A stretch of DNA of 64,000 nt. Source: Harriotta raleighana (lineage: Eukaryota). The stretch lies in NCBI GenBank assembly GCA_050575255.1, contig JBNZDD010013599.1, forward strand, positions 1,987,053 to 2,051,052, given 5' to 3'. Both the position numbers and the translations under genes were made by a program. Each line of letters begins with the position of its first letter. The stretch's first letter is position 1. Below are positions 7,563 through 16,092 of this stretch, piece by piece. The notes below the pieces were generated by a model. The model worked only from the letters and a program-made list of their open reading frames with translations, did not search any database and was not told the DNA's origin.

Positions 7563-7598
7563 ATGCATACAGAGAAATCAACAGAGCAAAGTAATCAG
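7563..7598 (+). CDS. C14orf180: NRAC-like coding exon 1 (MHTEKSTEQSNQ)
   Basis: ATG with an upstream in-frame TAG; donor CAG|gtaagt, phase 0. Confidence 0.55.
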
Positions 7599-13500: not shown

Positions 13501-16092
13501 TGGAAATTCACTCTCAAATTCAGTAAGAATGAGTGCACCAATCCAATACAGCACCTTTCACATATGAAGAGCATCTCAAATTGTCTGACAGTCCTGAATT
13601 TGGGATGGGAGCACAGTCAAACAGGTATGTTTTGAGACATGCCTTGAATGGGGCGGGGAGAGAGACCATTTAAGATCATCACGTCTGTTCATCAGAGTGA
13701 TAAAGAACTCCCAAAAAAAGAATAATTCTCGCATTTGACCCCTAAAGGCGTGTTACAAAAAATAATTAATTTACATGTTACAAAGAAATGTAGTGATTGT
13801 GTGTCTATAGGCAAATAGGGCAGCCAATCTGAACACAGCAATGTCCCACCAAGTGACAAAGTGAGTGACCAATTTTATCTGGGGTTGGTTGGTCAGGTTA
13901 GCAGGAAAATGTCTTTATTTCAATCATTCTATGGGATTATTAATATCTACCTGTACAGCCAACAGAACTGAATTTTGTCCGTCCGTCCGTGTGTCCCCCA
14001 GCACAACACTGGAGAATTAGCCTCGACTATGTCATTGTAAAGGCAAAGATTAACAAGCCCTTCATTGATTACAGCATTTCATTTGGAGTTCTTTAGCTTT
14101 CTATTCCCATTCCCAAGGTTTCTCTTCACATAACACTGTACTTTGCTTTGCCTAGAGAAGACGCGAGCTTAGTTACTGACCTGCGAACCCTCACTTCCAG
14201 TGTCTGTTTCCCTTGCCAGTCCTCGCTTCTGTCACCAAGTTTCTTGCAATGTTTTTAAGACTCCCAAGTCCACTCGGCCAAATCCAATGTAGGGAATCTG
14301 TTTGAAACCCCAGCTTGTGAGTAGTCAAGGTACGCCCAGCAAATCTTCCAGACTTCCCTGCAGTCCACTCCAAACCGGTTTCACCTCAATAGAAATAGTG
14401 ACTCTAATTAATAAGGGATGATCTACAAATTCCCCAATTTGTGAGGCTTGCAAAATCACCGGGGGGTTATCCCTAAATCTTTAAAGGACATTTCTCCATA
14501 AAGAGTGGAGAGTAAGGATTGGCCTATTCGCCTCGGACTATTGTCCATCTGAAATGGCTTAACAAGTTGCCCTCGAGAGAAAATCACGAGGATGGGAATC
14601 TCATAGATCACAGAATCTTACTGCACAAAAGGAGGCCATTCGGCCCATCGAGTCTGTGCCGGCTCTTTAAAAAGAGCAATTTAATCCCACTCCCCAGCTC
14701 TCTCTCTCTCCACATAACCTCACAAACCCGTCCTCCCCAAATAAATGTCTACCTCTCTTTTAAAAGTTGTTATCGAATCGGCCTCCACCACCGTTTCAGG
14801 GAATGCATTCCAGATTCGAACAACTCGCTGGGCTCGACTCGATGATTTTAAATGAGATTGAAACAGTAAAACCAGATCAATACTTTAAGATGTGTCAAGA
14901 CAGTAGAACAAAGGTTACATAGGTTTCAATGTTGTGAAGGGTAATTTCAAGACAGCCAGAATTTGTCTTTACACACAGGCTAATCAGCATCTACATGGTT
15001 GCCAAGAATGATGGTAGAGTAGAGGACACTTGTATTTAGACTACTACAGTATTTAACTTAAAAAAAAGTACAGCAAAATTATTTCTAAAACAAAACGAAA
15101 ACACAGCTCCCTTCACAGAATGGTGGGAGAGATTTTGAACAAGCATGGACAGAGTAGAACTAGACTCTCGTGGTAATGAAAGGTAATTCTGTTTAGGACA
15201 TCCCTCGACATTAAACAACAAATATATTGCATCCCATAAGTGTTGCATAAAAGGAGCTGTACTAAACGCTTAATTCAGACTGCTGCGTTGAACAGATGCT
15301 GTGAAAATGTTTGTAATATATCTTTCAAATTCCTATCCTGGATGAATCACTCTGAAAAGCAAAATAATTCATCACATTGCTGCCCTATTCCAGACAGCTC
15401 AGCAATTTTTTTTATTGTGACAATATATAGCCTGGATATGCTGTACGTGCGTATATAATGTGCAATTTTTAAGTGAGTGAATCCAATTTAACTTTTAACG
15501 AATTGTTCAGTATCTTGCAATAGTTTAGTCACAATGCACTCGAGGGAGAGGGAGACGGGCGACTGAGAGAAGAGTCTCCAGTGGTTCGTTTAGCCTGAAA
15601 CAGGGAAGAAAAATTCACTAATTCACAAAAGGTGGCCCATTCGATTGAAGTCTTGACCAAATAATCAATCTGCTCGTGCAGTCCAGAAAGAACAGCTGCA
15701 GATTACAATACAATATGTTGATCAGTTGTGTGTTTTTATTTAATTTTGAAGAAGACCTCGGTATTTTAGAGACTTCTTTCATATGGCAAGAGCAGTGACT
15801 AGCAACGCTCAAATAACCAAGTCCAGATTAGTGAGTAATAGTAATATTTAGAATGTATTTGAATTCTTTGTCACAATGTTGTATTTTTTCAGCTCATGAA
15901 GACTATTCCCCAGCTCCATCACCGTTACAGCTCTTTGCGTTCATTGTTTTGCTGAGCCTGCTGATTGGGTTCCTCTATTGCAGTAAGTATCCCTCCAAGG
16001 TCTGTGAACAACTTGGGTCGAAACTTCTTAGCTTCTATCTGGACATCAAGCACATGGCAATCAGATGCTGGCACCGATGGATGAAAAAGTAA
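7563..16092 (+). CDS. C14orf180: C14orf180/NRAC-like (consortin C-terminal family) single-pass membrane protein; join(7563..7598,8663..8788,10708..10846,15893..16092), ~166 aa
   Basis: The phase-consistent GT-AG join is 501 nt. PISILR...KRVHFRE and LQLFAFIVLLSLLIGFLYC...DIKHMAIRCWHRWMKK match recalled NRAC features (PPSILK, RRVWFRE, LGLYC...LRHVALTCW). It lies convergent with TMEM179, as in human. The first two exons rest on splice and frame evidence only. Confidence 0.8.
8333..8640 (+). mobile_element. tRNA-derived SINE with L2-type 3' tail, full length
   Basis: A box TAGCTCAGTGG at 8338, B box GGTTCAATTCC at 8381, caattggctgcc core, aagcgctatatgaaatgcaagg(att)n tail; many copies in this window. 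Confidence 0.9.
8663..8788 (+). CDS. C14orf180: NRAC-like coding exon 2 (DSAADQPLE...CNTQE)
   Basis: ctctatctcag| ... GAG|gtatcg, 126 nt open, phase 0-0. Confidence 0.6.
9834..10160 (+). mobile_element. tRNA-derived SINE, full length
   Basis: A box TGGCTTAGTGG, B box GTTCGAATCCC, same body and tail. Confidence 0.92.
10505..10685 (+). mobile_element. SINE, 3' half
   Basis: gactgtttgtggg...caattggctgccgcgtttc...aatgcaagggttattatt. Confidence 0.85.
10708..10846 (+). CDS. C14orf180: NRAC-like coding exon 3 (AIGLKWPISILRTR...KRVHFRESDEIILP)
   Basis: NAGNAG acceptor (start 10705 or 10708); donor A|gtaagt, phase 1; SILK-like and RVxF motifs. Confidence 0.85.
11390..11590 (+). mobile_element. SINE, 3' part
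   Basis: Same body and tail as the other copies. Confidence 0.8.
13735..14030 (-). mobile_element. Old Deu-domain SINE (SacSINE1/AmnSINE-like) relic
   Basis: The reverse complement reads caggtagatattaataatcccat...tggtca...ggtgggacattgctgtgttcagattggctgcc, resembling the recalled Deu-domain consensus. Confidence 0.55.
14600..14830 (-). mobile_element. CR1-type LINE 3' end
   Basis: cacagaatcttactgcacaaaaggaggccattcggcccatcgagtctgtgccggctct is the typical reverse-strand CR1 3' terminus. Confidence 0.75.
15893..16092 (+). CDS. C14orf180: NRAC-like last exon (TM helix + C-terminal tail)
   Basis: Acceptor tattttttcag| in phase 1; hydrophobic LFAFIVLLSLLIGFLYC; TAA ends at 16092. Confidence 0.85.

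Follow-up and report, generated by a model that had tools for sequence, protein, structure and literature searches.

Do the short open frames that lie beside TMEM179 in the 64-kb stretch of fish DNA analysed here (the window) form a single gene, and if so, what would its protein do? An earlier note had proposed a hidden four-exon gene that is spliced in phase, resembles NRAC (C14orf180) and carries a pair of protein phosphatase 1 (PP1) docking motifs. We found that four exons on the + strand, all flanked by GT-AG, indeed splice in phase into an open frame of 167 or 166 amino acids without internal stop. The intron phases of this NRAC-like four-exon model are 0, 0 and 1.

Coding exon 1, 7563..7598, + strand: ATG and 12 codons, phase-0 donor at the 100th percentile, without homology support.
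Coding exon 2, 8663..8788, + strand: 42 codons, phase 0 at both ends, polar and likely disordered.
Coding exon 3, 10705..10846, + strand: alternative acceptor at 10708; bears the predicted PP1-docking cassette.
Coding exon 4, 15893..16092, + strand: entered in phase 1 and closed by a TAA stop.

The acceptors of exon 3 at 10705 and 10708 form a tandem NAGNAG, both in phase 0, which gives the 167- and 166-residue forms, respectively. Scored with approximate splice-site matrices, the donors fall at the 100th, 92nd and 98th percentile of + strand GT sites, and the acceptors at the 97th, 86th–87th and 90th percentile of + strand AG sites. All four exons are single-copy within the 64-kb window, and an origin from repeats was ruled out for each of them. 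Exon 2 matched nothing in Pfam, and exons 1 and 2 are supported by splice signals and phase alone. A scan for micro-exons returned 303 open symmetric candidates in intron 3, 86 in intron 2 and 14 in intron 1, none of which was decisive. A candidate tRNA-Val gene (8331-8402) was rejected as functional, being the head of a repeat with more than 20 copies in the window.

Two further features were noted upstream of the first coding exon.

Possible 5' non-coding exon, 7221..7290, + strand: donor at 7291 at the 99.9th percentile, acceptor weak (77th).
Possible heart/muscle-type promoter or enhancer, 6542..7193, + strand: cluster of MEF2-type sites and nuclear-receptor half-sites.

The cluster contains perfect CTAW4TAG sites at 6587 and 7184, which we take to be MEF2-type, and CAAGGTCA sites at 6542 and 6738, presumably nuclear-receptor extended half-sites. 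It takes two of the three CTAW4TAG and two of the five CAAGGTCA sites in the window, and nowhere else do both pairs fit into 1100 bases (5 overlapping windows of 629), the motifs having been picked post hoc, after inspection of the region. Expression in muscle is hinted at solely by this putative cluster.

To identify the gene, Pfam profiles were scanned against exons 3 and 4 separately. Exon 4 matched one family only, PF15555 (DUF4658), over positions 71-123 of 123 (E = 0.0015; 19.1 bits, below the curated cut-off of 27 bits), and exon 3, scanned by itself, gave no match to DUF4658 or to any other Pfam family. The earlier note had suggested a search with both NRAC and consortin profiles; the former was found in this way, but neither exon matched the C-terminal profile of consortin at E ≤ 10, and orthology to consortin was rejected on this ground. 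Evidence of a second kind comes from the neighbouring gene.

TMEM179, synteny marker outside the gene, 20322..24331, - strand: four coding exons, tail-to-tail with the NRAC-like gene.

TMEM179 is complete here (exons mapped by tblastn), with 57–69% identity to 18 proteins, most of which are named TMEM179. The two genes are neighbours in human also, where NRAC lies at chr14:105046056-105056183 and TMEM179 is placed in a peak from chr14:105059814, described as overlapping.

Homologues were further sought with single exons. A 5.8-billion set yielded 20 candidates for exon 4, none at E ≤ 0.01, and three for exon 3, none at E ≤ 10; the ESM Atlas gave no usable match to either exon. In the HMMER representative search, exon 4 retrieved three unnamed proteins of 219, 390 and 158 amino acids (E from 4e-4 to 8e-4), and those of 158 and 390 residues align at their C-terminal ends, as expected of NRAC-like or consortin-like proteins. 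Against PDB, exon 4 gave nothing beyond a weak membrane-helix match (E = 0.64).

The predicted protein shares with NRAC, a membrane protein of fat and heart (A530016L24Rik in mouse), its size (160/165 residues against 167), a polar N-terminal domain, a SILK motif followed by RVxF, a membrane helix ending in Tyr-Cys, a Cys-Trp pair near the C-terminus and the TMEM179 neighbour.

Predicted transmembrane helix, 15925..15981, + strand: amino acids 113-131, ending Tyr-Cys (human Y121-C122).
C-terminal amphipathic, basic segment, 15988..16089, + strand: Cys-Trp seven residues before the end (human C153-W154 of 160).

Comparison of human and fish proteins revealed similar spacing of these landmarks: 23 versus 26 residues from the Ser of SILK to the Val of RVxF, 32 versus 30 from Tyr-Cys to Cys-Trp, and seven in both from Cys-Trp to the end, in a total of 160 versus 167. 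The stretch from the Phe of RVxF to Tyr-Cys differs more, with 38 residues in fish and 50 in human (12 fewer). Taken with the DUF4658 match and the synteny, which uphold the proposed NRAC-like identity, these features make the frame very likely a fish orthologue of NRAC/C14orf180.

Kyte-Doolittle hydropathy peaks at 2.45 in the 19-residue window from amino acid 113. In the C-terminal segment it reaches at most 0.33, with a hydrophobic moment of 0.31–0.53; the second helix is amphipathic in fish. For mouse NRAC, two membrane passes have been described, the second helix being a database annotation. Basic residues follow the first helix directly but are absent just ahead of it. With such flanking charges, the positive-inside rule would favour a topology opposite to that described for mouse.

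Three predicted PP1-docking motifs are encoded by exon 3.

SILK-type motif SILR, 10732..10743, + strand: amino acids 64-67 (human counterpart S46-I47-L48-K49).
Basic patch with RRRS, then RVxF motif KRVHF, 10789..10818, + strand: human R67-R68-V69-W70-F71 after T65-S66.
Predicted ΦΦ motif I98-I99, 10834..10839, + strand: six residues past the Phe of RVxF, aligned with an Ile-Ile of the PP1 regulator NIPP1.

The RVxF pattern is a Hendrickx-type consensus, and the SILK-type pattern [GS]IL[RK] admits Arg for Lys. The last position of SILK is written as K in PMC9813921. KRVHF occupies amino acids 88-92 (10804-10818), separated from SILR by 20 residues and followed by the helix, an order that agrees with the earlier proposal. 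S86 within RRRS is a basophilic-kinase-type site upstream of KRVHF, and the fraction of disorder-promoting residues is 0.66–0.82 across amino acids 1-112.

In human NRAC, as the earlier note had it, the same pair can be read residue by residue in the published model file (SILK and RVWF, versus SILR and RVHF in fish). Since human NRAC has S46-I-L-K49 and R67-R-V-W-F71, the pair appears to be conserved, as judged from one other species, human. It had been taken for the conserved core of the family; it does persist, but it is not the sole core, as the parts that match the profile are the helix and tail of exon 4. At the place of ΦΦ, human NRAC has V77-T78-V79 (F+6 to F+8), and the predicted I98-I99 motif is newly noted here. 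As in the RVxF class of regulators, an RVxF motif is accompanied by secondary docking motifs, SILK-type upstream and ΦΦ downstream. RVxF together with ΦΦ is present in about 90% of solved PP1 holoenzymes, SILK being the next commonest motif (PMC9813921), and basic residues between SILK and RVxF meet an acidic patch of PP1 (PMC10066265). Addition of SILK or ΦΦ improves RVxF affinity from 14 to 3–5 μM (10.64898/2026.09.09.750541).

The reading that we prefer, with a probability of roughly 0.6, is that the frame beside TMEM179 is fish NRAC and that its protein is a small membrane-anchored targeting subunit of PP1. Because the predicted docking motifs are common to fish and human, NRAC likely brings PP1 to the cell membrane, binding of NRAC to PP1 being predicted from these motifs. 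SILK, RVxF and ΦΦ, in a likely cytosolic and disordered tail, would dock PP1, and the membrane helix would keep the NRAC-PP1 complex next to a partner such as CD36. Substrates of the holoenzyme might then be CD36, caveolar trafficking proteins or NRAC itself. In response to hormones or fasting, a basophilic kinase, e.g., PKA, could free PP1 by phosphorylating the Ser/Thr that lies four residues ahead of the Val of RVxF (fish S86, human T65). Ancestrally, the protein may have acted in heart or muscle.

The earlier statement that NRAC function is poorly characterised is out of date. In PMC12436663, mouse NRAC is placed in the plasma membrane with its N-terminus described as intracellular; it forms a complex with caveolin-1, contacts CD36 through the first of its membrane helices and governs the uptake of fatty acids. 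Published work thus gives NRAC a part both in fatty-acid uptake that depends on CD36 and in the distribution of fat in humans. A rival reading, unlikely but far from negligible, is that NRAC is mainly a helix adaptor of CD36 and caveolin, and that PP1 is a minor or substrate-docking contact, e.g., for dephosphorylation or turnover of NRAC. The first helix is required for both CD36 binding and the uptake effect, according to PMC12436663, and helix and tail are the parts that match DUF4658. Of the 13 pull-down partners of mouse NRAC, the text names CD36, caveolin-1 and cavin-1 and not PP1, which is mentioned neither in the main text nor in the five of seven supplement files searched (PMC12436663). 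Micromolar motif affinity would also favour dephosphorylation of the motif-bearing protein (10.64898/2026.09.09.750541). In HEK293T cells, fatty-acid uptake is not lowered by a construct in which a foreign anchor carries the entire N-terminal tail (PMC12436663), so that the tail alone is insufficient. On the other hand, the constructs described in that text include no N-terminal deletion or motif mutant, and three in-register motifs, kept from fish to human, would fit a regulator that binds PP1 stably and multivalently.

The NRAC papers searched ascribe no PP1 role to the protein, and none of the matches listed in a literature search linked NRAC/C14orf180 with PP1, PPP1C or CNST. BioPlex, HuRI, IntAct or HGNC group 694 may, we presume, hold entries on C14orf180 or CNST, in which case the PP1 link would be partly known. 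Neither CNST nor C14orf180 occurs in the supplements of two PP1 interactome studies, where taperin was found in both and NIPP1 seen in one; this absence says nothing about NRAC if the cells do not make it, and counts mildly against consortin.

It is quite improbable that the motifs are coincidental, or are kept for another purpose (nuclear or ER export, a lipid-binding basic patch, another partner), and that PP1 is not bound. RVxF alone is common, arising in 22,192 of 400,000 residue shuffles of the N-terminal tail. In raw DNA, a SILK-type...RVxF pair occurs on average 0.175 times per 64 kb and in 14% of 200 simulated windows; a second such pair in the window, at 23245, is evidently due to chance, as it spans simple repeats and lies antisense in a TMEM179 intron. 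The charge flanking the helix is ambiguous as well. However, shuffles of the 112-residue N-terminal part produced SILK..RVxF in only 65 and the triad SILK..RVxF..ΦΦ in just 8 of 400,000, figures that are optimistic because exon 3 was chosen by its motifs. Moreover, human NRAC keeps both motifs in the same order and at similar spacing, despite the absence of any profile match to exons 2 and 3.

Consortin (CNST; alias PPP1R64 or C1orf71) presumably has C-terminal SILK...RVxF motifs followed by a membrane helix, and is about four times longer than the NRAC-like protein. Human CNST presumably lies at 1q44 near KIF28P, in a block that we take to be paralogous to 14q32. Beyond TMEM179, the window contains a kinesin-3 gene. 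In PDB, this gene is best matched by a 960-residue kinesin, 7wrg_A, which we take to be KLP-6, a relative of KIF28. Consortin is a trans-Golgi cargo receptor for connexins, according to the title of a reference, and the matches listed in a literature search on consortin (PPP1R64, C1orf71) with PP1 or RVxF, as far as their text was available, contained no link. That part of the model is mistaken, or that the gene is not NRAC (a short consortin-like paralogue, other 5' exons, a missed micro-exon, a decaying gene) is very improbable: the lack of homology support for exons 1 and 2, searches without named homologues, the 12 residues fewer before Tyr-Cys beside the 303 candidates in intron 3, and a kinesin-3 gene that recalls KIF28P near CNST would speak for it, but exon 4 hits the DUF4658 profile, with no consortin family reached at E ≤ 10, TMEM179 is the immediate neighbour, the frame is intact and the length is NRAC-like.

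Beyond the preferred reading of fish NRAC as a membrane-anchored PP1 subunit, a wider scheme is tentative, with the odds against it: NRAC would be a PP1 membrane subunit throughout jawed vertebrates and the whole-genome-duplication sister of consortin, docking through SILK-RVxF-ΦΦ, parked at CD36 and caveolae, released by a kinase, and born as a fatty-acid switch in heart or muscle before its later use in fat cells. This would call into question the statement of PMC12436663 that the genome contains no relative of NRAC. NRAC was first described as mammalian with few other vertebrate matches and is extended here to what is likely a cartilaginous fish. The literature examined assigns no activity to the 112-residue intracellular domain, in which a distant orthologue keeps a complete predicted PP1 cassette; if the prediction is true, CD36 trafficking would be tied to phosphorylation control. 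PP1 already has more than 200 regulators, and one more would hardly surprise specialists. The gene itself is ordinary, and the PP1 hypothesis is useful and testable.

Among known systems, NIPP1 (PPP1R8; PDB 3V4Y) was the best match of exon 3 in 177,635 PDB sequences (3v4y_B, E = 0.26, not significant alone). The alignment covers the basic patch, RVxF and Ile-Ile, and the two proteins have a basic patch, RVxF, an acidic spacer and Ile-Ile at equal offsets. By comparison, none of four control RVxF peptides (4 of 10 other RVxF stretches were run) gave any match at E ≤ 10. Unlike the NRAC-like protein, NIPP1 is nuclear and soluble; it contains an FHA domain and is not known to carry a SILK motif. 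The resemblance is likely convergent, at the level of motifs. NIPP1 is classed as an RVxF/ΦΦ regulator in PMC9813921. The SILK+RVxF regulators Inhibitor-2, Inhibitor-3, KNL1, RRP1B and Rif1 have been shown to bind PP1, whereas binding is predicted for fish NRAC. To our knowledge, none of these five is membrane-anchored. With fish NRAC they share a disordered region in which a SILK-type motif, a basic linker and RVxF follow one another.

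The earlier note had pieced together a four-exon NRAC/C14orf180-like reading frame, and this model was recovered with all exons flanked by GT-AG, intron phases of 0, 0 and 1, and a joined product of 167 (or 166) residues.

GT-AG flanked coding exons of the gene
7563-7598, + strand, coding exon 1
8663-8788, + strand, coding exon 2
10705 (or 10708)-10846, + strand, coding exon 3, with two alternative starts
15893-16092, + strand, coding exon 4

Using rough self-made matrices, all six splice sites were placed at the 86th-100th percentile of + strand sites, and the four exons are single-copy within the window, a piece of vertebrate genome with a G+C content of about 40%. 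The gene was overlooked by the ORF track because it is spliced. The order of elements noticed previously was also confirmed: SILR (aa 64-67), KRVHF (aa 88-92) and a hydrophobic 19-residue stretch from aa 113 (peak 2.45). An upstream ATG frame of five codons (7515-7532, +) shares the frame of the start codon and stops before it. A tRNA-headed SINE-like repeat is found at 8326-8640, 9840-10150, 10515-10676 and about 20 more places (copies 67-90% identical), one copy stopping 28 bases 5' of the exon-3 acceptor; a tRNA-Val called at 8331-8402 was rejected as the head of this repeat.

Exon 4 carries none of the motifs, yet its sole Pfam match (E ≤ 10) was PF15555 (DUF4658), which we take to be the C14orf180 family (positions 71-123 of 123, E = 0.0015, 19.1 bits). 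Exons 2 and 3 had no Pfam matches. In the profile search suggested earlier, PF15555 was matched by exon 4, under the cut-off of 27 bits, and the consortin profile was unmatched by exons 3 and 4 (E ≤ 10). TMEM179, a neighbour used as synteny marker, is complete in four exons (24331 to 20322, −) and convergent (tail-to-tail), 4.2 kb from the gene's stop; its top three matches are from sharks (65-69% identity; teleosts 57-66%), which makes a cartilaginous fish the probable source of this DNA. Human NRAC is located at chr14:105046056-105056183 (PMC3459823), and human TMEM179 has been assigned to a peak beginning at 105059814 (PMC6764480) and described as overlapping C14orf180 (PMC9259475). We consider the gene very probably (roughly 0.9) an ordinary NRAC orthologue, a new addition to a known family.

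Just upstream of the gene, region 6542-7193 (+) holds a cluster that has no counterpart elsewhere in the window, made up of two perfect MEF2-type sites (the window has three) and two CAAGGTCA half-sites (the window has five). This is in keeping with heart/muscle expression. These motifs were picked post hoc and their clustering alone is unusual, as the window-wide counts were matched in 11 and 14 of 100 shuffles and are not above chance. Single-N joins occur at 6071, 25715, 28722, 45826, 49022, 61088 and elsewhere, with duplicated flanks of 69-328 bases; our own test found such flanks at 6 of 14 single Ns, and they are likely assembly overlap artefacts, not true tandem repeats. Segments 16248-16697 (+) and 50597-50978 (−) resemble what is presumably a LINE retrotransposon 3' end.

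Exon 3 encodes a predicted docking cassette for protein phosphatase 1 (PP1), consisting of SILR, KRVHF and an Ile-Ile ΦΦ. In raw DNA, a SILK..RVxF pair is no rarity, with a mean of 0.175 per 64 kb and presence in 14% of 200 simulations; a second pair in the window, at 23245, evidently arose by chance. Of 400,000 shuffles of the 112-residue N-terminal part, 65 produced the pair and 8 all three motifs; a caveat is that exon 3 had been noticed via its motifs. Among 177,635 PDB sequences, exon 3 had two matches at E ≤ 10, the top one being NIPP1 from PP1 complex 3V4Y (E = 0.26). The window has ten further open RVxF stretches of 47 residues; four of them served as controls and had no match. The NIPP1 alignment runs ungapped from a basic patch through RVxF to Glu-Ile-Ile-x-Pro, where the Ile-Ile of NIPP1 is presumably its ΦΦ motif, and therefore a ΦΦ is predicted six residues past the RVxF Phe, at the same offset as in NIPP1. 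RRRS lies shortly before RVxF, its Ser at the offset of human T65. Phosphorylation near RVxF reduces PP1 binding, and modification of this Ser may weaken binding here as well.

NIPP1 is classed as an RVxF/ΦΦ regulator, and RVxF plus ΦΦ occurs in about 90% of solved PP1 holoenzymes, with SILK next commonest (PMC9813921). Inhibitor-3 has a basic SILK-RVxF linker opposite an acidic PP1 surface, and its non-canonical SILK brings a small affinity gain (PMC10066265). Adding SILK or ΦΦ to RVxF in model substrates shifted Kd from 14 to 3-5 μM (10.64898/2026.09.09.750541). On motif grounds, NRAC is predicted to be a probable PP1 binder, a hypothesis that is well-founded and cheap to test. That PP1 targeting is the main job of the family is less certain, at slightly under even odds.

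Several points speak against the PP1 reading. In the mouse NRAC study (PMC12436663), PP1 is absent from the main text and from the five supplement files searched (of seven), a list of 13 partners that bears on PP1 binding sits in a figure, and the NRAC tail on a foreign anchor did not lower fatty-acid uptake. CNST (consortin) and C14orf180 are absent from the PP1 interactome supplements of PMC13545437, which include taperin and NIPP1, and of PMC12999354, which include taperin, as well as from the available text of a third interactome paper (10.1101/2022.09.09.507380); HEK293T cells, at least, are described as without NRAC (PMC12436663). A term search of PMC5005033 added nothing on this reading. 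No NRAC-PP1 link was found in the openly accessible papers searched. Regarding topology, helix-flanking K/R residues number zero in aa 102-112 and eight in aa 132-167; flanking charge alone gives no favour to a cytosolic N-terminus. The second helix is amphipathic and not clearly membrane-spanning. An N-F-T sequon (aa 79-81; 10777-10785, +) lies between SILR and RVxF, and its glycosylation state would reveal the topology.

Mouse NRAC is a 165-residue plasma membrane protein of fat and heart (PMC3459823). Its domain 1-112 is described as intracellular, and it binds CD36 via the first helix, associates with caveolin-1 in a complex and keeps the uptake of fatty acids in check (PMC12436663), so that the former description of NRAC function as poorly characterised is dated. 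Knockdown in human cells led to less lipid storage (PMC6600120). The available part of a 2026 preprint on NRAC regulation mentions no PP1, phosphatase or motif (10.64898/2026.01.26.701858).

Past TMEM179 lie exons of a kinesin-3 gene (~35500-50324, −; motor, P-loop and later exons), with 7wrg_A as top PDB match (E = 1e-6). We take 7wrg_A to be KLP-6/KIF28-like, CNST to be PPP1R64, and 1q44 and 14q32 to be paralogous blocks; the kinesin-3 exons fit this paralogy and may link the locus to the CNST-KIF28P block. The SILK...RVxF that the earlier note ascribes to the consortin C-terminus drew no support from the profile search, and no CNST-PP1 link was found in the literature consulted, including available parts of PMC5983787. 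NRAC-CNST kinship is a lead which, if true, would contradict the published view of NRAC as a gene without relatives (PMC12436663).

Human residues were looked up in the NRAC model in supplement file 1 of PMC12436663, which contains S46-I47-L48-K49, T65-S66-R67-R68-V69-W70-F71, V77-T78-V79, Y121-C122 and C153-W154. Matching landmarks here are S64, V90, F92, I98-I99, Y130-C131 and C160-W161 of 167. The SILK...RVxF ascribed to NRAC in the earlier note is indeed present in the human model (S46-K49 and R67-F71); as for these motifs being the conserved core, the pair is shared with human, but the membrane helix is equally conserved. Homologue searches returned no named homologue and three weak unnamed matches, and motif conservation thus refers to one comparison, with human NRAC. 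Unlike in human NRAC, RVxF-Phe to Tyr-Cys spans 38 residues here (50 in human), which may reflect a true deletion or a missed micro-exon. A scan of intron 3 gave 303 micro-exon candidates, none decisive.

Intron 3: top-scoring candidates for a symmetric phase-1 micro-exon
13128-13202, + strand
13592-13624, + strand

Adding the 33-base candidate would bring the RVxF-to-helix spacing to 49, against 50 in human. The other spacings are alike in the two proteins: SILK-Ser to RVxF-Val is 26 here and 23 in human, Tyr-Cys to Cys-Trp is 30 and 32, and Cys-Trp to the end is 7 in both.
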